Below, piece after piece: positions 1 to 48,120 of a stretch of 64,000 nucleotides of DNA; the stretch's first letter is position 1; the number at the start of each line of letters is the position of its first letter. This stretch comes from Candidatus Thorarchaeota archaeon (GTDB lineage Archaea; Asgardarchaeota; Thorarchaeia; Thorarchaeales; Thorarchaeaceae), in assembly GCA_018335335.1 (NCBI GenBank), contig JAGXKG010000005.1, positions 2,868 to 66,867 on the forward strand. Reading direction: 5' to 3'. The translations under genes and the position numbers were made by a program. The notes beneath the pieces were generated by a model. That model saw only the letters and a program-made list of their open reading frames with translations, was not told the origin of the DNA and made no database searches.

Positions 1-712
1 ATCCTCGCCACTTCTATGAACTCCCTGGTCCGTGTTTCAAGACGGATGATGCTGATTCGATCCACTCAGGTCCTACTACAGGGTCTCCCCTAGTTCGTTT
101 TCCGAGTATCTTCTCTTTTAATCAGACATCCTTTGATTAGATTGCTGGTTTCAGGTACTTTTCACCCCGCTTCCGCGGTACTTTTCAACTTTCGCTCGCG
201 CTACTAGTCTGCTATCGGTTTGACATAGTATTTAGGCTTCGCAGATTGTACCTGCGTTATTCACACGAGACAACCGACCCATGCTACTCTGGGATCCACA
301 GACATGCCAACGTTTTACACCTACGGGGGTGTCACCCTCTTTGCCGCGTCGTTCCAGACGACTTTGATTTGGACGTTGAGGCAATTGTCCGTGGCCCGTA
401 CACCACATCCCCCAACACTTTTCGTCTTGGGGTTTAGTTTGGCCTTTTCCCTTTTCGCTCGCTGTTACTCAGGGAATCACGACTTGTTTTCTACTCCTGC
501 TCATACTAAGATGTTTCAATTCTGAGCGTTCCCCTTCCCGAAATGACTCGGGAATAGCACGAGGTAATAGCCCGTGCTTGGAGGTCCTATTCGGAATCCC
601 GCGGATCAATGGCTTCATGCGCCTACCCACGGAATATCGCCGCTTGTCGCGTCCTTCTTCGGCATGTCAACCGAGTCATCCACCAACAACCGTACAGCGA
701 ATTGCAGTCCTA
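1..712 (-). rRNA. 23S (LSU) rRNA, 5' ~700 nt; the gene continues beyond the window start
   Basis: The reverse complement carries conserved LSU blocks: CCGTCTTGAAACACGGACC (rc of 27-45), GTACCGCGGAAGCGGGGTGAAAAGTACCTGAAACC (rc of ~147-181) and GGTGGATG...GAAGGACGCGACAAGCG (rc of ~642-684), which marks the 5' end region. The 5' boundary (~705-715) is estimated by analogy to the E. coli spacing. Confidence 0.85.
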
Positions 713-1915: not shown

Positions 1916-2064
1916 GAAACCAACTCTGTTTCGAGGTGAGAAGTACCGGTATTAATGACTGTCGGATTCTTCAACCTAGAGCGGGCATACTCTTTTATTT
2001 CAATCTGCATCACAATGTATAAGCCGCGTCACGCGGTGAGATTCAATCCATAGCTCGGTGAGTT

Positions 2065-3093
2065 GTGATGATGGATATTCGAGCCAAATTCGAGCAAGCA
2101 CTCCAGGACACGGTAGACGAATGGAAGAAACAAGGGCATGTTGAAGGCATGTTTGTCTATGGGTCCTATGTGAACAAAGCCCAAACTCCAGATTCAGATC
2201 TCGATGTCTGTATAGTCTGGGACCAAGACGAGGCGCCAGTTCGCCTTCTGTCACGGCACAAAGGCGTCCGCATTGACATGACGTTCATCACTCAAGAAAG
2301 TATCCAAGAAGTATTGAACAGAGAGAGCGGAAATCCCCAGCAGATTGCCAAGGTCATCGAACGGGTGAAAGGCTCCAAGGTGGCATATGACCAATCAGGT
2401 AGACTTGAGGAATGGAGAGCAATAGCTGAAGATTATGTGTGGCCAGAAGAGGCGGTTATCATGATGAAGGAACGAACAGCCGGAGAGCTGGAACAAGCAA
2501 AGAAGCTGCTCGAAGAAAACCGGGTTAGCTCTATTTGCGAGCTGCGTAATGCGCTGTTTGACCTGGCACGCACAATCTTGATGATTGATAATAGATTCAG
2601 CATCATCAGAACCGCAGACGTCCTATCGGAAGCGAGGTTGCTTAATCCTCCAATGTACAGCCTCTTCCTGAGGACCTTCAAGCTACGAGGCATGAATGAA
2701 GAGCAGATTATGAAGGCTCTCGAAGATGTGAAAAGCTGGCTCCGAGAAGCAGAAGAGCGGCTTGACAAGAGCGACTTGGACACCGTTGTTATCCCCTTAC
2801 TCAATCGAGCGCAACGTCACTATTTCGGCGCCTTGTCCCTGACCATCAACGCATCTTATGAGCTGGCTGTACTGGAGATGCGTCACGCCATATACATGAT
2901 AGCTAACGCCCTGCTGGCTATGCACGGAATAGAAGAACCGGATAGTCTTGAGTTCATCACTTCCTTGCGAGAGAAAGAGAACGAATTCTATGAGGATATG
3001 CTCCTCTCACTCTGCGAGTTCGACCTGCAGCCAAAGGCTATCAAGCGAGCAATCGATGAATCCAAATTCGTCCTCGCCAGGTTAGCAGTCTAA
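2065..3093 (+). CDS. Nucleotidyltransferase-domain protein with a helical C-terminal domain (KNTase-like)
   Basis: GMFVYGSYVNK...DSDLDVCIV matches the minimal NTase motif (GS...DxD). The long alpha-helical C-terminal half is typical of NTase substrate-binding domains. Confidence 0.6.
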   Translation: MMMDIRAKFEQALQDTVDEWKKQGHVEGMFVYGSYVNKAQTPDSDLDVCIVWDQDEAPVRLLSRHKGVRIDMTFITQESIQEVLNRESGNPQQIAKVIERVKGSKVAYDQSGRLEEWRAIAEDYVWPEEAVIMMKERTAGELEQAKKLLEENRVSSICELRNALFDLARTILMIDNRFSIIRTADVLSEARLLNPPMYSLFLRTFKLRGMNEEQIMKALEDVKSWLREAEERLDKSDLDTVVIPLLNRAQRHYFGALSLTINASYELAVLEMRHAIYMIANALLAMHGIEEPDSLEFITSLREKENEFYEDMLLSLCEFDLQPKAIKRAIDESKFVLARLAV

Positions 3094-3148: not shown

Positions 3149-3715
3149 ATGTCTGCTGACGATGTTAAAATCCTCAAACTACTCAGTGTACTTCTGACCC
3201 AGACCAAACAGGACCAGCTCAAAGAGGAATTCGATAAATACACGGACGCTACCAATTTCGTCCTCGCCGAGATTCTCAAGCAACATCTCACCTCTGAGGG
3301 GCAGGCGATAAATGAATTGCGCGAGGAGTTCACGTCCAAGTTCGATCCGCGGATTGCCTATCTGGAGGATGTTGTCAGAACTGCAAGGGTCAAGATAGGA
3401 GAGCACAGGGCTATGGCGCGATCGATGAGGAGCCTGCGCAACAAGACGCCCTACTTCGAAGAGGGGAAAATGATATTCTCTGAACCGATTATCAAAGTGA
3501 AACCATCGGCCACTATCCTCTTCACTGCAGATGACGAGGAAATACCCGTACCATACGATAAGCGCACTCGCAACCGTAACAAGGAAATCCTGACAGAAAT
3601 AGCATCAGGAAAACGCGACCACGGACGGGTACGCCTTACCTGGAAGAAGGCAGGTTATGTCGGAGTCGATATCAGAGTGGAAGGGGGCAAACTTGGAAGA
3701 CCTGAAGAAATTTAG
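3149..3715 (+). CDS. Hypothetical protein resembling only the N-terminal (non-nuclease) half of IS200/IS605 OrfB/TnpB
   Basis: The pattern LLTQTKQDQLKEEFDKYTDATNFVLAEI resembles the TnpB N-terminal L.PT..Q...L.......N motif. The end, HGRVRLTWKKAGYVGVDIRVE, is also TnpB-like. No RuvC or Zn-finger part is present. The stop overlaps the stop of the convergent WD40 gene. Confidence 0.35.
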   Translation: MSADDVKILKLLSVLLTQTKQDQLKEEFDKYTDATNFVLAEILKQHLTSEGQAINELREEFTSKFDPRIAYLEDVVRTARVKIGEHRAMARSMRSLRNKTPYFEEGKMIFSEPIIKVKPSATILFTADDEEIPVPYDKRTRNRNKEILTEIASGKRDHGRVRLTWKKAGYVGVDIRVEGGKLGRPEEI

Positions 3716-4593
3716 AAGGACCAAGCCAGGAGAGACCCCGAAAAATCGGTTGTGAACAGCCGCTCAGTGGCAGGACACCATTCTACAGAACTGACTCCAC
3801 TCCAGAGTTTTGCCTGTTTCAGCTTTTTCTCTCTGTCCAACGACCATAATCTGATTGTGCGATCCGAGCTGGATGACACCATCCGGGTATCAGAGAGAAG
3901 AGTGAAATCGGTTATGGGGTCAGTGTGGCCCTCAAGAGTAAACGAAGTGGAAGGATCCTCAACAGGAAATACCCTGATGTCGCCAGTGTGAAAACCAAGA
4001 ATCACCCGGGTATCATCAGGAGTTGTCCCAAGACAACGAATCCGTTTCTTGTCCTCCCGAAGTGTAGAGAGAAGGTCGTACTCCTTCAAATCCCAGATAC
4101 GACAGCTGCCATTCCACGAGACACTCAAAAGCTGGGAATCCCCATCAGCAAAATGGAGACCAGAGACATTCAAATCGTCGGTCTGCATATTGCGTATGCA
4201 CTTCATGTGTTCTACTGAGAAGATCTTCACTTCGCCATCTCTGCCGCCAGCTGCACCTTTGTTTTCGTTATCTGCAATTGCCAGAGATTTGACCTCAGTG
4301 TGATGTTTGAGCATCTTCGGCTCCTTCTTACCTTTCTTGAGAGACCAGCGACGAGTTGTACCGTCCCAGGAACTGGAGAGGACGTGTTTGCCTTTTTTGA
4401 GAAAACGTACCTTGGAGACAATATCTTCATGACCCTTCAGTATCTTCAAAACAGTGCCCTCTTCTAGGTCAATAAGTAGAATTGGGCCCTCAGTAGTACC
4501 GCACGCAGCTCGTTTCCCGTCATGATCAACTGAAAGGCAGGTCAATGGAACTGCATCAGCTGGTTCCGGCTGATAAATGAGCTGCTTGTCCAA
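3712..4593 (-). CDS. WD40-repeat protein
   Basis: Repeated GH.D.V..V.F...G....S.S.DGT.R.W motifs (about 7 blades), e.g. GHEDIVSKVRF...SSSWDGTTRRWSL and GHTDPITDF...SSSSDRTIRLWSL. Confidence 0.85.
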   Translation of the reverse strand: MDKQLIYQPEPADAVPLTCLSVDHDGKRAACGTTEGPILLIDLEEGTVLKILKGHEDIVSKVRFLKKGKHVLSSSWDGTTRRWSLKKGKKEPKMLKHHTEVKSLAIADNENKGAAGGRDGEVKIFSVEHMKCIRNMQTDDLNVSGLHFADGDSQLLSVSWNGSCRIWDLKEYDLLSTLREDKKRIRCLGTTPDDTRVILGFHTGDIRVFPVEDPSTSFTLEGHTDPITDFTLLSDTRMVSSSSDRTIRLWSLDREKKLKQAKLWSGVSSVEWCPATERLFTTDFSGSLLAWSF

Positions 4594-4654
4594 TGCTTTG
4601 CACCATCTTTGGTTTGATATACGTCATATCAATAGGACTTCCGGTCTTAAAGCC

Positions 4655-5686
4655 TTAAGGTTCGTTTCTGCGCGTATACCAGAAATAGCTCATACCCACA
4701 ACAACAAAACCTGTAGCAACGAGTCCAATCTGGAGAAAGGGGAAAGCGTCAAGCTCAAAGATGGCATTGGAAGCCAAATCCTCGACGAGGAACACTTCCA
4801 TAACCTCACCGACAATCGCCAAGCTTTCAGCACTACATTTGTCAGGCGTATCCTCAAGAGTATGCCAATAATCCGGAAACGGAGCATGTTCGATGATATC
4901 GAGTGCTGGAATACCAGCATCGAGGAACGGGCGATGATCATCCAGTATTCTTGCTCCTACTGTCGGTAAGAAGGTGTCATTCCTGCCCATAGATTCGGCA
5001 CGTTCCCAGACTGCATTCTGCAGAGTGTCTGTGGAGGTGACTTCTTTTTCCAAGCGCAGCTCCTTATCGCCAACCATATCGAGAAGAATCATCGCCGAAA
5101 TCTGGCCTTTCCTTGTATCTGATAATGAATCAACGAAGTATGTTGAACCAACAATCCAATCCCAGCCATTGATGTCACCCGAGTCTTCGGCATCGAAGAA
5201 GACCAGCTCGATTCCTTGCTTGACTTCATCTGGTAGGACACATGCAAGCTCAAGAAGCACAGCAACACCGCTTGCACCGTCGTTTGCACCCAGTATGGGT
5301 TCTGATCGATTTTCTGGATGAGAATCCTTGTCTGCTCTTGGGCGGGTATCATAATGGGCTCCGAGGATGAATGAGGGAGTATGATTGCCGGGATAGGTAG
5401 CACGAATGTTCGAACAAAAGACATCCAGATATGTGAAATTCTGAAATACTACGTTCCAGCCGTAGTCATCTAAAGCCTCTGCCATATATGCCCTGCACGC
5501 ATTCAAATTCTCTGACCCTGGTGGGCGCGGACCAAAGTCACATTGCTCGACCAGATGGGTATATGCACGTGGCCCATCGAACACCGGTGTGTGAGCAGCA
5601 TCAACACCCGGACCGCTACTAAGAAAGAAGCATACGATGGCAATGAGTGCCCACGTGGCATGCTTGGAAGACATGAAGGATATCAC
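4655..5686 (-). CDS. M28-family metallopeptidase / glutaminyl-cyclase-like protein, secreted and C-terminally membrane-anchored
   Basis: LGAHYDTRPRADKD, GANDGASGVAVLLELA and VFFDAEDSG metal-ligand motifs. There is an N-terminal signal-like hydrophobic stretch and a C-terminal TM segment. Confidence 0.75.
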   Translation of the reverse strand: MISFMSSKHATWALIAIVCFFLSSGPGVDAAHTPVFDGPRAYTHLVEQCDFGPRPPGSENLNACRAYMAEALDDYGWNVVFQNFTYLDVFCSNIRATYPGNHTPSFILGAHYDTRPRADKDSHPENRSEPILGANDGASGVAVLLELACVLPDEVKQGIELVFFDAEDSGDINGWDWIVGSTYFVDSLSDTRKGQISAMILLDMVGDKELRLEKEVTSTDTLQNAVWERAESMGRNDTFLPTVGARILDDHRPFLDAGIPALDIIEHAPFPDYWHTLEDTPDKCSAESLAIVGEVMEVFLVEDLASNAIFELDAFPFLQIGLVATGFVVVGMSYFWYTRRNEP

Positions 5687-5746
5687 TACGGCATAACCTA
5701 AGAAGGTTTGGCAGTGGGCGTAAAGATGAAAGAAGCATACAGTAAC

Positions 5747-6415
5747 CTAGGTGGTACTACAGGAATCTCCACCAGTTTCCGGCCGCAACCCAAGTCGGCG
5801 CATGAGCTTGCCACCAGGGACTTGTTCTTCCGCTGCCGGCTCACCAGATTTATCCACTTTGACTGGTCTCCTTCGGACTTCTTCAAAGCCGTATGCCATC
5901 ACCAGCATCTTTGATGGATGGTTCTCCTCGAAAATTTCACAGTATATTTCCTCAATTCCTGCTTCAATGAAATATTCAGAGGCCCGTTGAATCATCGCTG
6001 TTGCAACACCCCGGCGGCGACGTTCAGGTAACACGCCTATCCCGGTGATTTCACCATAGACCCCACGGTCATCTTCTTCCACAAAACAGGCAATGAACCC
6101 CGATAGCTCACCCCAGAGCTCAGCCACGAAGATACCCTCTGTGTCGAGCTTCTCTGCTTCAGCTGTTGTTAAGGGACAGAAGGGGTCAGGAGAGGCTAGA
6201 AAACAACGATTGTAGAGGGCAACGAATTCCTCGATTTCGGTTTCCCTCAATTGTCGTACGTCTATGTAGCTTGGAATACTCTTGTCTTCCCACCAATCAC
6301 GAGCGAGTCTCAAGGCCTCCTCTGCGTCAGCCTTCATAATCAGATAGTGGCTGACGTTTGATTCAGACTCTTCCTGTGATGGCATCGTTGGTCTACCCTC
6401 TTCCGATTGATTCAA
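5747..6415 (-). CDS. GNAT-family N-acetyltransferase
   Basis: Acetyl-CoA motif A: GIGVLPERRRRGVATAMI. Confidence 0.75.
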   Translation of the reverse strand: MNQSEEGRPTMPSQEESESNVSHYLIMKADAEEALRLARDWWEDKSIPSYIDVRQLRETEIEEFVALYNRCFLASPDPFCPLTTAEAEKLDTEGIFVAELWGELSGFIACFVEEDDRGVYGEITGIGVLPERRRRGVATAMIQRASEYFIEAGIEEIYCEIFEENHPSKMLVMAYGFEEVRRRPVKVDKSGEPAAEEQVPGGKLMRRLGLRPETGGDSCSTT

Positions 6416-6449
6416 ACGGTTAACAATCTATTGGCAGCACCACTCAGCA

Positions 6450-7226
6450 TCAATCTGCATGAAGAGAGTCGATTGCTGCAATTGTGGCCTCGATTTCTTT
6501 CTCGACTGCTTCTTTGAGGAGTGGGTCTTCCTCACCGGATTCCTCGGTGGCGTCACTCAGTTCCCCTTTCTGCTCGCCATGCAGATTACCATCACAGGCT
6601 AGGATTGATGCCGCCTCCAAATCATTGGTAGTGGCGAAAACAAAAAGCAAGGAGGCCTCCATTTCTACACATTTCACATTTGCTCTCGTCCAGACATCCA
6701 GGGGGTTACCCATCTCAGGATTGTTGTAGTATACGTCTGTAGTCCAGCAGATGCCACGGTGAACACGATCCTCTGGGAATACAGCGGATATCTCGTCGAA
6801 AAGAGCCTTCTGCCAGACAGGAGAAGCAACAGCCGGATATTCTATGGGCGCATAGTTCAAGCCGGTTCGTTCATCCCTGACACATGCTGTGGGCACCACA
6901 ACGTCTCCCGTCGTGACATCACGAGATATGCCACCACAACTCCCCACTCTGATGATGACCTGAGCTCCGAGGTTCGTCAGCTCCTCTATGCAGATATGCG
7001 TGGTTGGTGTACCCATGCCGGTTCCAGAGAGTGTTACCGGGACTCCACCAGGGGTGTAGGCACGATAGGTTACCAAGCCACGATATCTGGCAACCTCCTC
7101 GGCATCATTCATCTGCGCAGCAATTTTCGGAATACGATCGGGATTGCCAGCTATAAGACAGATATCCTCAACATCGCCTTCACCAACTCGTAGATGGGGT
7201 TGAATACGCTTCTTCATGGGATTCAC
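6450..7226 (-). CDS. udp: Uridine phosphorylase-type nucleoside phosphorylase (PNP/UDP family 1)
   Basis: Co-linear with E. coli Udp from memory: IAGNPDRIPKIA, SGTGMGTPTT.I.IEEL..LG, IRVGSCGG, YAPIEYPAVA, VEMEAS.L. Confidence 0.75.
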   Translation of the reverse strand: MNPMKKRIQPHLRVGEGDVEDICLIAGNPDRIPKIAAQMNDAEEVARYRGLVTYRAYTPGGVPVTLSGTGMGTPTTHICIEELTNLGAQVIIRVGSCGGISRDVTTGDVVVPTACVRDERTGLNYAPIEYPAVASPVWQKALFDEISAVFPEDRVHRGICWTTDVYYNNPEMGNPLDVWTRANVKCVEMEASLLFVFATTNDLEAASILACDGNLHGEQKGELSDATEESGEEDPLLKEAVEKEIEATIAAIDSLHAD

Positions 7227-7370
7227 CTGTATGACAGTTCACTAGTGCCTATGTGTTTCGCCAAATAAGCAGGGTCGCACACTCTTATTTCGGTTCTTTC
7301 GTACAAATAACTTTCTCAACACAGAAGTTTCACGCGGTTGTGTTCACTCACCTGTACGGATAGGATTGTG

Positions 7371-8678
7371 TTAACAGTGGAAGTATGAAACGAGGCTCTC
7401 TTTCCGGGGAAAAAGGGTTGACACGAGAGACTTGACTTTCCCGGAAACCAGAAAGTCGATGTTCATCTTGGATAGTTCATCTATCCGATAGTCGCCCAGC
7501 ACCAATCGAACAAAATCCATCGGTGGTGCTCTTACATCCGTTTTGTCTCCCACTTCTGACGGCCCAGAATCGGTTATTCCAACTATAGCCCCACCGACAA
7601 TCTCGAGTTCATAGCAGTGTCTATAGGTATTCAAAGGCAGGGTGTAAGACAGCCCTTCAAACATGGTTCCATTGAGTCGTGTCTCCAAAACTGGCTGTAT
7701 CTTCCGCAAGAACCGCAGCATATCAGGAATGCGGATTTGGTACTTCCATCCTCGGCTTATTTCTCCGCCCATATCGAGTGCCAACCGTGCGAGGTTTGAT
7801 AACCTACTCCCTGGCAACGTTATTCGATAGAGGCCTTTGGAAAGCGCTTCCGTTCGAAGGAATTTCAACGTGGCAAGTATTCCCGAATAGGACACAATGC
7901 TGCTTTCGATGACATCAAGAGTAGCACCGCTCTCAGGCTTGGAGGCATCACCACGGGAAACCAGTCTGAAATATCCGACAATTGCTCCGCCTGTCTCTAC
8001 CACCAGTGTTGTGAAATCAGCGGCATACTCCTTTTTGAACCGCTCCTGAAGAGTCCATAACTCCTGTGAACGGCGGGCCGTGACAAGGAATTTCTCTCTT
8101 TGTTGATCATACAGTTTCATGATGGCACCCAAGTCGCTCTCTTGGGCTTCTCTGATGGAAACATCAGAAACTGTAGATGGGTACGACTCGTCTTTGGCCG
8201 GTATCTGATCAACTCTGATGGAGACAGATTTCGCGAGCGGGAGTATGAAATCATAACCGAAATTCCGATAGACATAGGGAATGCCTTGGATGGTGGAGAT
8301 ATCATACTCGCCGTCATGCAGGTGCTTCTCAAAGAGCTGGTAGAGTATTCGCATGAATCCCCTTCGACGATATCCTTCTAGCGTTCCCACATATCCAAGC
8401 TCGAGGTTCTTCAGCGGCACACCATCATAATCCCAGGTACTCGGAATCGCATTGAGAGAGGAAACGATCATGTCTTTGTCTGTATCGCGTATGTAGAAGT
8501 TCATCTCACGGGAGAAGTCAGGTAGATTTTTTATCAAATGTCTAAGCGCTACAGCATCCCCGCGATTATGTACCTTAGCATTGAACTCGACTAGTTCGTC
8601 AACCTCCGTATCGGATTGGACGATACCTATTTCGAAGCCATCTGATACTTCAGGGAGGTCATTCTCTGGTAGTGCCAC
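7371..8678 (-). CDS. GNAT acetyltransferase with tandem GNAT-like domains and a C-terminal extension (Eis-like architecture)
   Basis: YVGTLEGYRRRGFMRILY acetyl-CoA motif. The 435-aa length and second GNAT-like segment resemble Eis-type enzymes. Confidence 0.55.
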   Translation of the reverse strand: MALPENDLPEVSDGFEIGIVQSDTEVDELVEFNAKVHNRGDAVALRHLIKNLPDFSREMNFYIRDTDKDMIVSSLNAIPSTWDYDGVPLKNLELGYVGTLEGYRRRGFMRILYQLFEKHLHDGEYDISTIQGIPYVYRNFGYDFILPLAKSVSIRVDQIPAKDESYPSTVSDVSIREAQESDLGAIMKLYDQQREKFLVTARRSQELWTLQERFKKEYAADFTTLVVETGGAIVGYFRLVSRGDASKPESGATLDVIESSIVSYSGILATLKFLRTEALSKGLYRITLPGSRLSNLARLALDMGGEISRGWKYQIRIPDMLRFLRKIQPVLETRLNGTMFEGLSYTLPLNTYRHCYELEIVGGAIVGITDSGPSEVGDKTDVRAPPMDFVRLVLGDYRIDELSKMNIDFLVSGKVKSLVSTLFPRKESLVSYFHC

Positions 8679-42410: not shown

Positions 42411-42968
42411 ATGGTCACAGATATTAGAGGATACCATGCGAATGATTTGGTGGTGTGTCGCGGTTTGTGGCATGAACTGACCGAACATCATCAAGAAATC
42501 TACGACGATTCATCAATTGGAGGGGAAACCCCTGGTCATCTCTTCGATGAACATCTTGCCAACGTCGGTGTAGATAGGGTTTGGGTTGCGGAGAAGAAAG
42601 GCAAAATCGTTGGGATGGTTTCCTTGCAAGACTCAGAGGGCGGCTTGGAAATCGAGCCAATCATCGTAAAGAAAGGACATCGTGGAGAAGGAATAGGAGA
42701 GAAACTCCTTCGATTTGCAATACAAAAGGCAAGAGAACTCGGTGTCCGATACCTTATGATTCGACCGGTGATGAGGAATTGGGATGCTATCCGAAAGTTT
42801 CATCGGGAAGGGTTCGTCAACATAGGGCGGATCGAGCTTTTCAAAGATCTGAGGGGGATGAATGGCAAGAAGGACCATCTCTGTTTGGAGTTCAATTCAG
42901 GTATTGATGCCGTCTCACCAGTGGTCTGGCGACCGAATTTCCGAAAGGGTAGTCTTCCAGTGATTTAG
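42411..42968 (+). CDS. GNAT N-acetyltransferase
   Basis: IIVKKGHRGEGIGEKLL acetyl-CoA motif. Confidence 0.75.
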   Translation: MVTDIRGYHANDLVVCRGLWHELTEHHQEIYDDSSIGGETPGHLFDEHLANVGVDRVWVAEKKGKIVGMVSLQDSEGGLEIEPIIVKKGHRGEGIGEKLLRFAIQKARELGVRYLMIRPVMRNWDAIRKFHREGFVNIGRIELFKDLRGMNGKKDHLCLEFNSGIDAVSPVVWRPNFRKGSLPVI

Positions 42969-43898
42969 TACTTGATTTGTCTCTTGAGCAATATGTTCAA
43001 TCCTAGTCAAGGTTGTATCGGGTAAGTCGCGCTGTTGTTCAGCCTTACATGCTGCCAAGATACGATTCAAGTGCTTGACAGGCTGCTTTGCTCTTTCACC
43101 CCAGTCCCATACTGTGCACCAATGCTCTGATAGATATTCTCCATACGTTTCTACGGCTTGCATCCGGGAATCCGGCAATGCTATCGTTCCGGGATGTAAC
43201 CATAGCATATCAGTACCATTTGGAGCTACCCCGAAAATGGCATTGGAATAAAACTGATACACAGGAATGCCGATATTCTCACAGTAGCGACTGATTCGCG
43301 CCGCCCCTGCAACACCACCAGCAATGGAATAGATAAGGATAGCCCTGATGTTGGAACTCTGTTGCAGAGTAGTATGAATCATTCGTTCCATGGTTCCTCC
43401 GGTGGCAATAGTATCTCCAATCAACACAATTGCATCTGAAGGCATGGCTTCGTAATTTTGGTATGATAGGTCTGTAATCCATCCCTCTGCGGTCTTTATT
43501 CTCTGAGCCCCAACGAAACAGCGATTGAGAGTCTCACTGAACAGGGTCTGGAACGCCTGTGTCATACGATAGTACAAGGCACCAGCAAGAGGTACGATTT
43601 CTGCAATCTGCTCCAGGGTTGCCTTTCGAAGTTCGGGGCAGATTTCAAAAGCAATACGAAGAAAATCAGTACTAGCAATCTGTGCGCTTCTTGCGAGATT
43701 TGCACCAACAATCCAAGGTGACAGCAATATCTTGAGAGAGCTGTCTGATTCTATGATGAATGTGTTATCAAGCAAGTGTTCGCTTCGCACACGGTACGCT
43801 TGATGCCGCAAGTCATCGGTATATTCCGTTTTTTCTAATTCAACATTCTTCCTGATTGACTGTTGATCGACCAATGTCCTTCCCCTATTCAGGCACAA
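42915..43898 (-). CDS. Divergent type-I phosphoribosyltransferase-fold protein (UPRTase-like core with extra N/C regions)
   Basis: PRPP loop AIVLIGDTIATGGTM, plus an upstream VPLAGALYY segment like the UPRT VPILRAG. Confidence 0.55.
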   Translation of the reverse strand: MCLNRGRTLVDQQSIRKNVELEKTEYTDDLRHQAYRVRSEHLLDNTFIIESDSSLKILLSPWIVGANLARSAQIASTDFLRIAFEICPELRKATLEQIAEIVPLAGALYYRMTQAFQTLFSETLNRCFVGAQRIKTAEGWITDLSYQNYEAMPSDAIVLIGDTIATGGTMERMIHTTLQQSSNIRAILIYSIAGGVAGAARISRYCENIGIPVYQFYSNAIFGVAPNGTDMLWLHPGTIALPDSRMQAVETYGEYLSEHWCTVWDWGERAKQPVKHLNRILAACKAEQQRDLPDTTLTRIEHIAQETNQVLNHWKTTLSEIRSPDHW

Positions 43899-44224: not shown

Positions 44225-45376
44225 TTAATTCTTGTCTGTCGAGGTCATGGCAGCTTTGATTTCCTGCAGTTGTTTCCTCTTTCGTTTCCTGAGATTACGT
44301 ACTCTGCGTTCAGCATAGCCACTAGAATCACAGTCCAATTGCTCCAAGAGGTGGAGAATCTCATCGGGAGGTCGTTTTTCAAGCAAACGGAGGATACGGT
44401 GTGTTTGACGATAACCGGTTCTTCTAGTCTTCATAATCATTTCACCGATTTCTTTACCTGCGAGACTTGCCAAAGCATTGAGCGAGCTTCTTCCCCAGTT
44501 TCCTCTACGCTGAGTGAAAGGTAGGAGATATTCAGCTGACGAAGGGTGGCCAATCATTTCTAATGCATTCATAATTTTTACAGCTGTATAGTACAGCTTT
44601 GTGTCGGATAGATAACGATGAAGCCATGGTAGGAATCTCGAGTCCGCATGATCCCTGACAAAGGTTGCAGATTTCCGAACAGCTTGTTTGCCTCTGTAAG
44701 TCAGCATTCTAAGAATATGCCAGAGAATATCCTGTGTGTTGGAAGTGCAATTTTCGAATCCGGATATACGACCACCCAGCTGTAGTGGTGTCCGCTTAAT
44801 GGTTATCTCCGCTCCCATCTCATCTATAATTTCACTCATAGCCCCCTTCATACGTTTGAATCCCTCTCGACGATTTGAAGTCAACGAGCCACACCTCGTA
44901 AGAACTGAATAACCATAAGCCGTCCCCACCATATCTCTAACAGTACACTCAGATGGAAGGTCAAGAATCTCCTCCTTTCTCGCGTCGAGTATATCAGGTA
45001 TCAAAACTGCAAAGGGTCCACTTGACATAGCATCAATATCAAGGAGATATGTATTCTTCTTCTGAATCATCTCTTGCAGGATTTCATCTGCAATATCAAG
45101 ACAAGATGTTCTGACCTCGGCAAGGGATTCCCCGTCTACATCGTCGTTTTCCAGTAGAGATTCATAATCAGTATCAATTCCGCCAACGCTATGCAATCCC
45201 AAGAGGTGCAACACCGCATCACGAATTCGAGGTCGGGCGATTTTATGGTCTCTTACGAGAAAGATCTTTTTGACACTCAACCAACCCCACTGAGCTATCT
45301 CTTGCTCTACCAGCTGATCGAGAAAATCATAACGCCGCCATCTTGCTGCATTCAGAATGTGTTCATCACGTTCCAC
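44225..45376 (-). CDS. Hypothetical helical-repeat protein
   Basis: ORF only; basic C-terminal tail (RKRKRKQ). Confidence 0.45.
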   Translation of the reverse strand: MERDEHILNAARWRRYDFLDQLVEQEIAQWGWLSVKKIFLVRDHKIARPRIRDAVLHLLGLHSVGGIDTDYESLLENDDVDGESLAEVRTSCLDIADEILQEMIQKKNTYLLDIDAMSSGPFAVLIPDILDARKEEILDLPSECTVRDMVGTAYGYSVLTRCGSLTSNRREGFKRMKGAMSEIIDEMGAEITIKRTPLQLGGRISGFENCTSNTQDILWHILRMLTYRGKQAVRKSATFVRDHADSRFLPWLHRYLSDTKLYYTAVKIMNALEMIGHPSSAEYLLPFTQRRGNWGRSSLNALASLAGKEIGEMIMKTRRTGYRQTHRILRLLEKRPPDEILHLLEQLDCDSSGYAERRVRNLRKRKRKQLQEIKAAMTSTDKN

Positions 45377-46533: not shown

Positions 46534-47403
46534 TCACGTTGAGGAGACTAAGGAGCTAGAAGACCGGCCATTCCGGGGAGAGCCAAGCTTGTCCAACATG
46601 GCGTCTATCAGGTGAGACCGTTCAGAGGGGTCTTGCATTTCAAGTGCTGTTAACGGAATCGTATCTATGCCCAAGATACTACTAACACGCTCGCCTGTAA
46701 GTGCAGCAGCACGATCCTGTTTATTTGCAACGCCCAAAAGAGCTGCATCACCGGTCCAAGAACGGGCATGCGGAATCATTTTTCTAGACCATAATACCCT
46801 TTCAAGGGTACTATCCGTTGTGACAAGAACAAGCTGAGAACCTCTAAGATAGGTTGGCCACAAACTGCGGAATCTGGGCTGTCCACCAATATCCCACAAA
46901 ACAATGCCTGTCCCACTCCCAATAAAACCACCGGGTACAGGTCTCACTTCGACACCGATGGTAGAGACGTACCTAAGCGGGATACGTTGCTTGAGTAGCA
47001 TCCGGGAAATTGTGGTTTTCCCAACACGTGGCTGCCCAAAAATCGCGATTTTAATCTGTTGACTCAAAACGATGCTTACTGCTTTCTCCATCACCTTATT
47101 GATTGGGATTACATCAATTTCACGGACACAGCGCTCCCAAATCTTCGTAAGCACTTCTTCCAAAGTAGCAACATCATCAACTATGGGAGATACTGTAATG
47201 AGTGAGTGTTCTTCATCAGCAATATAGCTGACACGTCGATTGCCAAGGTTGAGATGGTCACGAAACGAATGCTTTTTCCCCCCTATTATTTCAGAAAATG
47301 CGCTCAGGAATCTCTTCATGGAATCGCCTAGTTCTGCCACGCCAAAGATTTCTTTTGCAAGCAGGTCACCATAACTGTTGAATATGAGCAGCGCTTCAAT
47401 CAT
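46534..47403 (-). CDS. Roadblock/LC7-like N-terminal domain fused to an Arf/Sar-like small GTPase
   Basis: G1 GQPRVGKT, G3 WDIGGQPRFRSLW, G4 ANKQD. The N-terminal ~110 aa (MIEALLIFNSYGDLLAKE...) has a Roadblock/MglB-like pattern. The ATG at 47403 is preferred over the TTG at 47427. Confidence 0.8.
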   Translation of the reverse strand: MIEALLIFNSYGDLLAKEIFGVAELGDSMKRFLSAFSEIIGGKKHSFRDHLNLGNRRVSYIADEEHSLITVSPIVDDVATLEEVLTKIWERCVREIDVIPINKVMEKAVSIVLSQQIKIAIFGQPRVGKTTISRMLLKQRIPLRYVSTIGVEVRPVPGGFIGSGTGIVLWDIGGQPRFRSLWPTYLRGSQLVLVTTDSTLERVLWSRKMIPHARSWTGDAALLGVANKQDRAAALTGERVSSILGIDTIPLTALEMQDPSERSHLIDAMLDKLGSPRNGRSSSSLVSST

Positions 47404-47427
47404 TGATAGCCCTACAACACCAATCAA

Positions 47428-48120
47428 GTGGAGAAAAAGGATATATTTAGTGGAGAAAAATCATCACCCAATCTATTTCGGGCACTTGGTGAAGTGAATG
47501 GAGATGAGAAATTGCTCGTTCAAATCATAGTGGTATTGTTGGTCGGCCTCAGCTTAGGCGCATTTGTTACCCATTTCTATTATACCAGTACCAGTCTGTC
47601 AACTACAAGTCTGCCAACAAGCAATGAATCAACTATAGGTGGCAATGAAGACAACTGGGGGATTGGAGGCATTTCAGTTGTTGAAGTGTCAGTCTCGGAA
47701 CAAGATCTCAAAAACATCCTTACGGAAATTGAATCCTGGAAGAAGAAACAGCTTGAAAGATTCTTCGGCAATTTTCTTAGGGAAAGAGAAATAGATATAC
47801 TTGAGGCTCTAGCAAAGGCATTCGTAGTGGATGGGCAACCTAAGCACAGCCATTTGAAGGAGATATCCAAAGGTTGGATGAATAGACATCAGATTCATTT
47901 GGAAAGCGGAGTATCACGAAAAGTGATTTACAAGCGCGCAGGAGTTATGGATCGTCTAACAACAGTTGGACTGGTGCTTATGACGAAGAGAGGTACATGG
48001 GGCCGCGGGAAATACGAGTATCGTCTTAATACAGAGAATGCATTTGTTTCCACTTACGCAGGAGCAGTTCTTAGAGCATTGTCTTATATCTATTCCCTAT
48101 CACTCGAATCCCAAGAGTGA
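47428..48120 (+). CDS. Single-pass membrane protein with a C-terminal wHTH-like domain
   Basis: One TM helix (LLVQIIVVLLVGLSLGAFV), a Ser/Thr-rich linker, and a C-terminal helical segment (EIDILEALAKAF...VIYKRAGVMDRLTTVGLV). The start codon is uncertain. Confidence 0.4.
   Translation: MEKKDIFSGEKSSPNLFRALGEVNGDEKLLVQIIVVLLVGLSLGAFVTHFYYTSTSLSTTSLPTSNESTIGGNEDNWGIGGISVVEVSVSEQDLKNILTEIESWKKKQLERFFGNFLREREIDILEALAKAFVVDGQPKHSHLKEISKGWMNRHQIHLESGVSRKVIYKRAGVMDRLTTVGLVLMTKRGTWGRGKYEYRLNTENAFVSTYAGAVLRALSYIYSLSLESQE

Follow-up and report, generated by a model that had tools for sequence, protein, structure and literature searches.

Work on the Arf-like GTPases of Asgard archaea has to date relied mostly on yeast, on mammalian cells or on in vitro assays. 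Some of these proteins are fused to longin domains: in Lokiarchaeum, five out of 41 longin domains are attached to Arf-like small GTPases (Klinger et al. 2016, as relayed by Dey et al., PMC4917890), MK-D1 has GTPase domains joined to either a longin or a Roadblock domain (Tran et al., PMC10933270), and some Asgard Arf proteins (AArfs) carry N-terminal longin domains (PMC11914678). The native regulators and effectors of Asgard Arf proteins are yet to be established (PMC11914678), and the small GTPase genes of MK-D1 generally do not lie in operons with Roadblock, longin or TRAPPC3 genes (PMC10933270). Here we describe a gene of this type and its conserved surroundings in a stretch of 64,000 nucleotides (nt) from a Candidatus Thorarchaeota archaeon (the window; assembly GCA_018335335.1, contig JAGXKG010000005.1, positions 2,868 to 66,867), which is part of a 2.94-Mb Asgard genome from salt-lake metagenomes. 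Like the described Asgard fusions, its product holds an N-terminal longin domain and a C-terminal Arf-like GTPase on one polypeptide, and we are highly confident of its identity as a longin-Arf-like GTPase fusion. The fusion itself is already known, since it has been published for Lokiarchaeum, MK-D1 and the AArfs, a precedent that the first-pass annotation of the window missed (PMC4917890, PMC10933270, PMC11914678).

On the other hand, the conserved module around the fusion appears to be undescribed in the literature searched. A conserved membrane-anchored winged-helix neighbour, an upstream box or a linkage to Sec23/24-like genes are described in none of those three papers, and PMC11914678 makes no mention of gene neighbours, operons or transmembrane partners. 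The orthogroup of this GTPase thereby offers candidate partners: a membrane-anchored winged-helix neighbour that is stable to rearrangement, a gene-specific box, and, in some lineages, a Sec23/24-like gene preceded by this box. Should one of these links prove true, it would reveal what the GTPase switch is wired to in an archaeal cell, and such wiring would bear on whether membrane-trafficking logic predates eukaryotes.

The gene that diverges from the GTPase gene in the window (the neighbour; Table 1) is kept with the GTPase orthologue, in either orientation, in seven of the eight diverged lineages for which DNA was available. Homologues of the neighbour were recognized by hmmsearch with expect (E) values of 1e-32 to 1e-100, and by BLASTP against the window protein with values of 1e-14 to 1e-21. 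Both genes are directly adjacent in six lineages (the window with L001 and G037, L003/L009, L004-6, L010, L011, and L013), and in a seventh (L002/L008/G124) the neighbour homologue is found one gene away from the GTPase. In the eighth, L012, no neighbour is found near the GTPase, and the genome yielded only a soluble paralogue elsewhere. A ninth contig, P0007, for which only proteins were available, holds a divergent gene of 196 residues without a Pfam match in the neighbour's place. The pair is divergent in three lineages (the window with L001 and G037, L011, and L013) and co-directional in four, so that its orientation was flipped several times while the adjacency stayed. The surroundings beyond the pair differ as well, with TYW2 and rubrerythrin genes in the window, DeoC and transketolase genes in L002, and others elsewhere, and the GTPases of these lineages are only 40–48% identical to one another. 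A real functional link between the GTPase and neighbour genes is therefore regarded as likely. The first-pass annotation had offered such a link as speculation, and had proposed to check it by the conservation of the neighbour beside orthologues; the six direct adjacencies and the seventh at one gene's distance lend it support, in spite of the loss in L012.

The second element shared by these loci is a box of 12 nt, TCCTTTTTCNCC (written on the coding strand of the GTPase gene), which was found ahead of the GTPase start codon at 10 of the 11 loci. In nine of them the copy is exact and begins at positions −28 to −50, L013 holds degenerate copies, and the box is also present in L002/L008, where a gene is inserted between both members of the pair. 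L009, apparently a deletion variant, is the only one of the 11 loci in which the box is missing. The consensus can be extended to approximately 16–18 nt. In the window, a direct repeat, GTGGAGAAAAA, begins at 47428 and at 47450 on the plus strand, and weaker repeats spaced by approximately 22 nt are likewise found in L001, L004, L011, and L013. The window contains one exact match to the box and seven matches with up to one mismatch, against 1.7 expected. The genome as a whole contains four exact copies, against approximately one expected; the three other copies lie within or beside coding sequences with no gene start downstream, and for this reason they are taken as chance matches. Since the box is a non-coding element conserved across lineages whose synonymous sites are saturated, its conservation implies a function, either as a candidate operator or as an atypical promoter specific to the GTPase gene.

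Regarding the neighbour, its description in the first-pass annotation as a single-pass membrane protein with a winged-helix C-terminus agrees with a predicted membrane helix and with fold matches to MarR-like proteins. The start-to-start arrangement that had been proposed for the pair stands only in part: the genes are divergent, although probably not at a spacing of 24 base pairs (bp). The true start of the neighbour is probably TTG 47512, because the product then begins like its homologues, a GGAG sequence lies 9 nt ahead of it, the first 28 codons of the longest open reading frame (ORF) diverge approximately three times as much as the rest when compared with a 90%-identical relative, and the box of the GTPase promoter falls inside 47428..47511. 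With this start, the genes would diverge over approximately 108 bp. In the eight homologues of the neighbour, the best 19-residue Kyte-Doolittle window has a mean of 2.2–3.3, and the hydrophobic helix lies 0–9 residues from the N-terminus (21 in L003 as called, and 28 in the long ORF of L001). The helix is followed by a linker and by a conserved domain of approximately 105 residues with an isoelectric point (pI) of 9.0–10.6. Because the N-terminal stub ahead of the helix is short and acidic or neutral, with no basic residue in most homologues, and K or R occurs within the first 10 residues past the helix in five of the eight, the sequences suggest an N-out, C-in topology with a cytoplasmic domain.

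VIA-align places the modelled winged-helix part among MarR-family and other winged-helix chains, with Z scores of 9–10 over 100–118 residues, and nearly all of the best 50 Foldseek matches are MarR-family or other winged-helix DNA-binding proteins, albeit weak ones (E values from 1.5e-3 to 1e-2). The neighbour matches no Pfam or NCBIfam family, even at E values up to 10. Its own family is narrow, with members in six of 151 genomes sampled across the phylum; a word-based search for this family returned seven proteins, and its profile, when run against the collected proteins, found matches only within the family itself. Two further members are encoded in the genome of the window on a contig of 6.3 kb (C42, locus L007), at 1019-1774 on the minus strand (membrane-anchored, 251 residues) and at 3854-4174 on the minus strand (soluble, 106 residues), amid genes for a parallel beta-helix-like surface protein and for repeat proteins and with no GTPase gene on the contig. 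In L010, a truncated second copy of the winged-helix family (1-330, minus strand) diverges from the neighbour, and the box lies reversed between them.

As a whole, the locus would be best explained if the GTPase were a GTP switch in functional association with a winged-helix regulator or partner tethered to the membrane, an explanation that we hold to be moderately probable. Eukaryotic longin domains bind small GTPases, and act in trans for Rab, Arf, Rag, and SR-beta proteins; the longin domain of the fusion may similarly be a built-in docking, dimerisation, or regulatory platform for its G domain. The GTPase is proposed to work with the neighbour, an N-out, C-in single-pass protein whose basic, MarR-like winged helix would lie in the cytoplasm. 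Among the roles considered for the neighbour, the most likely would be that of a membrane-tethered regulator that reads the TCCTTTTTCNCC repeats before the GTPase gene and, in some lineages, the same box before the adjoining Sec23/24-like gene. A membrane-proximal state would thereby be coupled to the production of the GTPase switch, and the neighbour may additionally dock this switch at the membrane.

That the neighbour acts through the DNA box, by a binding predicted from sequence and models, is put forward tentatively, at somewhat less than even chances. It is favoured by the MarR-like fold returned by two aligners, by the basic character of the domain, by the conservation of the box with its direct repeat across the loci, by its recurrence before the Sec23/24-like gene of L003 and L011, and by the fact that the box precedes no other gene in the genome of the window. 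Regulators of the MarR and ToxR/CadC types resemble the neighbour in their helix-winged helix-helix fold, in their basic charge, and in being often divergent from a gene with a specific upstream repeat. Unlike them, the neighbour has no Pfam membership, carries its membrane helix at the extreme N-terminus, and lacks an external sensor domain.

Several observations weigh against this explanation. The box persists in L012, which has no membrane-anchored neighbour nearby, so that it may be recognized by another factor or serve as an unusual core promoter. It is a direct repeat and not a palindrome, whereas MarR dimers usually bind palindromes. The model of the neighbour has a mean predicted local distance difference test (pLDDT) score of 53 and reaches 70–86 only across most of residues ~120–220, and its fold scores are middling (Z 9–10). 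Paralogues of the neighbour occur, in the same genome, on a contig without the GTPase. Moreover, both the contact of the neighbour with the GTPase and its binding to DNA are predictions. Complex prediction with the full GTPase and residues 86–230 of the neighbour gave 0.00 in both runs, a value that counts neither way.

A different possibility, which we consider rather unlikely, is that the neighbour does not bind DNA but works as a membrane receptor or anchor, whose winged helix attaches to the longin domain or the GTP-bound G domain and so recruits a switch that has no anchor of its own, while the box is a promoter read by something else. The GTPase indeed holds neither an amphipathic helix nor lipidation motifs, the neighbour begins with a strong membrane helix and lacks an extracellular domain, and the co-directional pairs look operon-like, with gaps of 56–93 nt in L003/L009, L004-6, and L010. 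The charges of the putative partners are also opposite (pI 5.1 for the longin domain and approximately 10 for the winged helix), a Sec23/24-like gene adjoins the pair in some loci, and binding of small GTPases by longin domains is well established in eukaryotes. However, no fused form comprising longin domain, GTPase, and winged helix was found, and Pfam recognized no helix-turn-helix (HTH) family in the extensions that ten long relatives carry at the C-terminus; the MarR-like fold and strong basicity of the winged helix are those of DNA binders; and the gene-specific box with its direct repeats sits where a local regulator would act. Both roles are not mutually exclusive, and that of a regulator is favoured.

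The logic of such a receptor would be like that of SR-alpha (SRX) with SR-beta, or of Sec12, Sar1, and Sec23/24. The signal recognition particle (SRP) receptor (PDB 1nrj, 2fh5) shares with this locus a longin-type domain (SRX), an Arf-like GTPase, and a single membrane helix, and SR-beta chains match the G domain with Z scores of 16–17.5. Here, in contrast, longin domain and GTPase form one chain, the membrane helix is carried by a second, winged-helix protein, an SRP-type NG domain is lacking, and Pfam SRPRB gives no match. In the case of Sar1-Sec12-Sec23/24, the likeness resides in an Arf/Sar-like GTPase, a single-pass protein, and a Sec23/24-like gene found together in three lineages. Unlike Sec12, the membrane protein is a winged helix and not a beta-propeller, and in the genome of the window the Sec23/24-like gene lies elsewhere, with another GTPase.

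In L003, in L011, and on the P0007 contig, the pair is adjoined by the Sec23/24-like gene, whose product has a trunk of the von Willebrand factor A (VWA) type and a Sec23 beta-sandwich. The box is found approximately 30–45 nt ahead of its coding start in L003, and a form shorter by one base approximately 40 nt ahead of it in L011. The genome of the window holds a single homologue, on contig C43 and apart from the pair, and no box was found upstream of the operon to which it belongs; likewise, four additional genomes from the same family have the gene away from the pair. It is distinctly improbable that the pair and the Sec23/24-like gene form an archaeal membrane-recruitment module, in which the anchored winged helix docks or activates the switch and the switch engages a gelsolin-less Sec23/24-like protein. 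If true, such a module would prefigure, in a prokaryote, the receptor-GTPase-inner-coat logic known from COPII or that of SR-alpha/SR-beta, and it would be the first lead from genomes to the partners that Asgard Arf-like GTPases have in their own cells.

Still less probable is the absence of any functional link, in which the adjacency would be an inherited Asgard gene order and the box the core promoter of the GTPase gene. The loci are all drawn from a single, rather narrow group, in line with the restricted distribution of the neighbour family, the adjacency was lost in L012, and paralogues of the neighbour occur without the GTPase. An inherited gene order, however, is difficult to reconcile with neighbourhoods that are entirely different outside the pair and with genes that are still adjacent after repeated changes of orientation, and protein identities of 40–48% imply saturated synonymous sites, yet the non-coding box of 12 nt is retained. 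Should no link hold, the gene would be one more member of the catalogued family of longin-GTPase fusions.

With respect to the fusion itself, its N-terminal region of approximately 112 residues, which the first-pass annotation had rightly recognized as a domain but had taken for Roadblock, is a longin fold as judged from sequence profiles and structure models, and not a Roadblock/LC7/MglB fold. The GTPase was modelled with AlphaFold2 on 15 relatives (mean pLDDT 79, mostly 70–90 in the N-terminal domain). In this model, DSSP assigns strands at residues 4–9 and 14–19, a helix at 27–40, strands at 47–53, 56–62, and 66–73, and helices at 78–91 and 101–113. The chain thus begins with two strands and not with a helix, and continues with a helix, three further strands, and a pair of helices, as in longin domains; Roadblock domains differ from these by a helix ahead of the first hairpin (PMC10933270). 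The ESM Atlas model of residues 1–112 gives template modelling (TM) scores of 0.76 with AP-1 sigma, 0.80 with longin SNAREs, and 0.74 with an archaeal cluster of Fuz/MON1-type longin domains, and the profile of the domain, when compared with solved structures, finds longin domain 1 of MON1 (E 0.003), AP-2 mu (0.19), and AP-3 sigma (0.45). A profile search of the full library returned 128 cluster representatives with the domain at their N-terminus, 125 of which were scanned in Pfam. Among these, 70 carry an Arf/Roc G domain, 31 match Gtr1_RagA, and the longin families Fuz_longin_1 (seven proteins, best E 2e-8), Longin (four), and Clat_adaptor_s (three) are matched. Conversely, Robl_LC7 does not appear among the 25 Pfam families that the 125 relatives match most often, none of the 15 family members matches it at E values up to 10, and hhalign gives a probability below 1% between the domain and two genuine Roadblock proteins of the same genome. 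The longin domain and the small GTPase lie in a single ORF without stops, the longin-GTPase (L-G) architecture of Asgard archaea.

That the domain is nevertheless of the MglB/Roadblock type, placed ahead of the G domain as in a reversed Rag/Gtr protein and working as a built-in GTPase-activating protein or dimerisation module, can hardly be credited: Roadblock and longin share a common core fold, so that patterns read by eye can look alike (PMC10933270), Asgard Roadblock-GTPase fusions exist (PMC4917890, PMC10933270), and separate Roadblock genes flank another Arf-like GTPase in the same genome, but the absence of an N-terminal helix, the presence of two C-terminal helices where Roadblock domains have one or none, the profile results given above, and structural neighbours consisting of AP sigma chains and longin SNAREs all argue against it. 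The description of the protein as the reverse of Rag/Gtr falls with the fold subtype on which it was based. Rag/Gtr and MglA-MglB do share with the fusion the combination of a small GTPase with a platform of the Roadblock/longin superfold. However, the Roadblock domain of Rag proteins is C-terminal, while here the platform is N-terminal and of the longin subtype, and Gtr1_RagA gives no match to the GTPase at E values up to 0.1; MglB, in turn, is a separate Roadblock protein.

The G domain contains the motifs G1 (GQPRVGKT, residues 123–130), G2 (T148), G3 (WDIGGQ, 170–175), G4 (NKQD, 227–230), and G5 (around A253), as read from the translation, so that all five motifs of the Ras superfamily are present in a Rossmann-like G domain of approximately 165 residues, including the three that had been quoted in the first-pass annotation. 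Thr148, in switch I, and Ala253 are invariant across the orthologues. In switch II, WDIGGQ is followed by PRFRSLWPTYLRGS (PRFRSLWPTY), and Arl8 has nearly the same string at the corresponding place (WDIGGQ-PRFRSLW). The P-loop is mildly unusual, with Pro and Arg at the positions of G12 and G13 of Ras, where more distant relatives have G. As the switch-II glutamine is retained, there is no sign of a dead enzyme, and from its sequence the G domain is complete and presumably competent for hydrolysis. In the structure model it is followed only by a disordered tail of 14 residues. The ATG at 47403 is taken as the start of the gene because every orthologue opens with MI(E/Q)A; a longer frame from TTG 47427 would add eight residues that are present in no orthologue. 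Six full-length orthologues of the same length are 40–97% identical to the protein, and the nearest named records come from Lokiarchaeota and Thorarchaeota metagenome-assembled genomes, in keeping with the earlier view of the gene as typical of Asgard archaea.

The earlier assignment to a eukaryote-like, Arf-type G domain is borne out by the profiles. The domain matches Pfam Arf with an E value of 1.6e-15 (57.5 bits; cut-off 22.3), Roc with 1.1e-13, and Ras with 4.7e-09, as well as the NCBIfam small_GTP domain model; the Pfam Arf model is unspecific, exceeding its cut-off also in E. coli and eight other control genomes. In addition to this score, the protein has the switch-II pattern WDxGGQ...R.LW..Y and the NKQD motif, and it shares with the Arf family the pattern LP.A and the DS after strand 4. 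Against the PDB, the profile of the orthogroup scores best with Arl5 (66 bits), GerdArfR1 (65), Arf1 (64), Arl8 (62), Rab6 (61), and Sec4 (58), so that Arl8, Arl5, Arf1, and Asgard ArfR1 (PDB 8oun, 8oum) are among its best sequence matches. MglA is absent from the best 60 of these PDB matches, which rules out an ordinary prokaryotic MglA. The unfused proteins returned by a word-based search are all of the Arf family, Arl8 or Arf/Arl type. Fold matches of the model (Foldseek, VIA-align) comprise Rab, Arf, Arl, Sar, and Ras chains with Z scores of 17–20, and fold comparison by itself does not tell Arf and Rab apart; in PDB searches with the full-length model, the match lists were filled by the G domain. 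The genome of the window contains six matches to the longin domain of the GTPase and 22 to the Arf model.

The position of the G domain was further explored in a quick IQ-TREE run on 101 G domains (69 longin-fused, 16 eukaryote-type Arf-family, and 16 from other small GTPases of the same genome), in a tree that was unrooted, without outgroup or curated references. All 69 longin-fused G domains fall, together with one unfused GTPase of the same genome, on one side of a branch with an SH-like approximate likelihood-ratio test (SH-aLRT) support of 97, the eukaryote-type Arf sequences form a clade of their own (support 95), and the GTPase orthogroup comprises ten cluster representatives (support 99). 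The order of the longin-fused clade, the Arf clade, and the Rab/Ras-like paralogues has no supported branching. The longin-fused clade does not nest within the eukaryote-type Arf clade in this tree, so that the term Arf-like rests on motifs and profile scores, by which it is right. The protein is, from these sequence comparisons, a member of an Asgard-specific clade of longin-fused GTPases. It departs from the Arf family proper in lacking the N-terminal amphipathic helix that is the defining feature of this family (PMC11914678; bioRxiv 10.1101/2024.02.28.582541): it starts with MIEALL, holds neither such a helix nor Gly2, and has the longin domain at residues 1–112, in place of the amphipathic helix and myristoylation site. 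No C-terminal lipidation motif is found in its sequence either.

Table 1. Features of the locus, in coordinates of the window.
Feature	Coordinates	Strand	Basis or remark
GTPase gene, 289 residues, longin-Arf-like	46534..47403 (stop codon included)	-	ORF and translation
Predicted longin domain, residues 1-112, acidic (pI 5.1)	47068..47403	-	DSSP topology, profile and Atlas matches
Arf-like G domain, residues 113-275	46579..47067	-	Pfam Arf, PDB profile matches, fold matches
Conserved box TCCTTTTTCTCC	47430..47441	-	Starts 38 nt upstream of the GTPase ATG
Second, partial copy of the box, TTTTTCTCCAC	47450..47460	-	22 nt upstream of the first
Neighbour gene, predicted single-pass membrane protein with cytoplasmic winged helix	47428..48120	+	Longest ORF from GTG 47428; probable start TTG 47512 (202 residues)
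Predicted membrane helix of the neighbour, residues 29-52 of the long ORF	47512..47583	+	Kyte-Doolittle; model helix at residues 27-56
Predicted winged-helix (MarR-like) domain of the neighbour, residues ~115-229, pI ~10	47770..48114	+	Model, fold matches
Phosphoribosyltransferase (PRTase)-like gene, 327 residues, single-copy, loosely linked to the pair	42915..43898	-	Weak PRTase Pfam matches, E ~0.01

The PRTase-like gene encodes the motif VLIGDTIATGGT of the phosphoribosyl pyrophosphate (PRPP) loop, and its product is 47% identical to that of a 307-residue gene located between the neighbour and the GTPase in L002/L008. Given this nearby gene, the neighbour was also compared with the Pfam family wHTH-PRTase_assc, which gave no match. 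An ORF of 383 residues between the rubrerythrin and PRTase-like genes (44225-45376, minus strand) shows weak matches to DUF6000 and HEAT, and is missing from the syntenic region of L001, the 90%-identical relative.

The Sec23/24-like gene of contig C43 (locus L014, C43:94000-105000) heads a minus-strand operon at 3392-7728, which encodes the Sec23/24-like protein (543 residues, with a zinc finger, the trunk, and the beta-sandwich), a Roadblock protein (157 residues), an Arf-like GTPase (187 residues), and a second Roadblock protein (127 residues). A third Roadblock gene diverges from the operon. The Sec23/24-like gene is thus clustered with a small GTPase and with proteins that probably regulate it. 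In L003, the Sec23/24-like gene was called from ATG 2180, and a conserved N-terminus with zinc-finger cysteines is found upstream, at 1985-2040 in frame 1. This upstream frame has no canonical start after a TGA, which suggests that the start was mis-called, that the sequence contains an error, or that the start codon is unusual.

Many longin relatives of 440–750 residues have C-terminal extensions without a Pfam family. One of them is a longin-GTPase paralogue of 536 residues located directly upstream of the pair in L004 (737-2347, plus strand), which is 58% identical to a protein from contig C78 of the genome of the window; its long C-terminal extension gives marginal matches to TrmB and HTH_9 (E 0.02–0.03). 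Finally, a gene with an ARPP-1 domain (2050-2676, plus strand) is located just downstream of the GTPase gene in L010.

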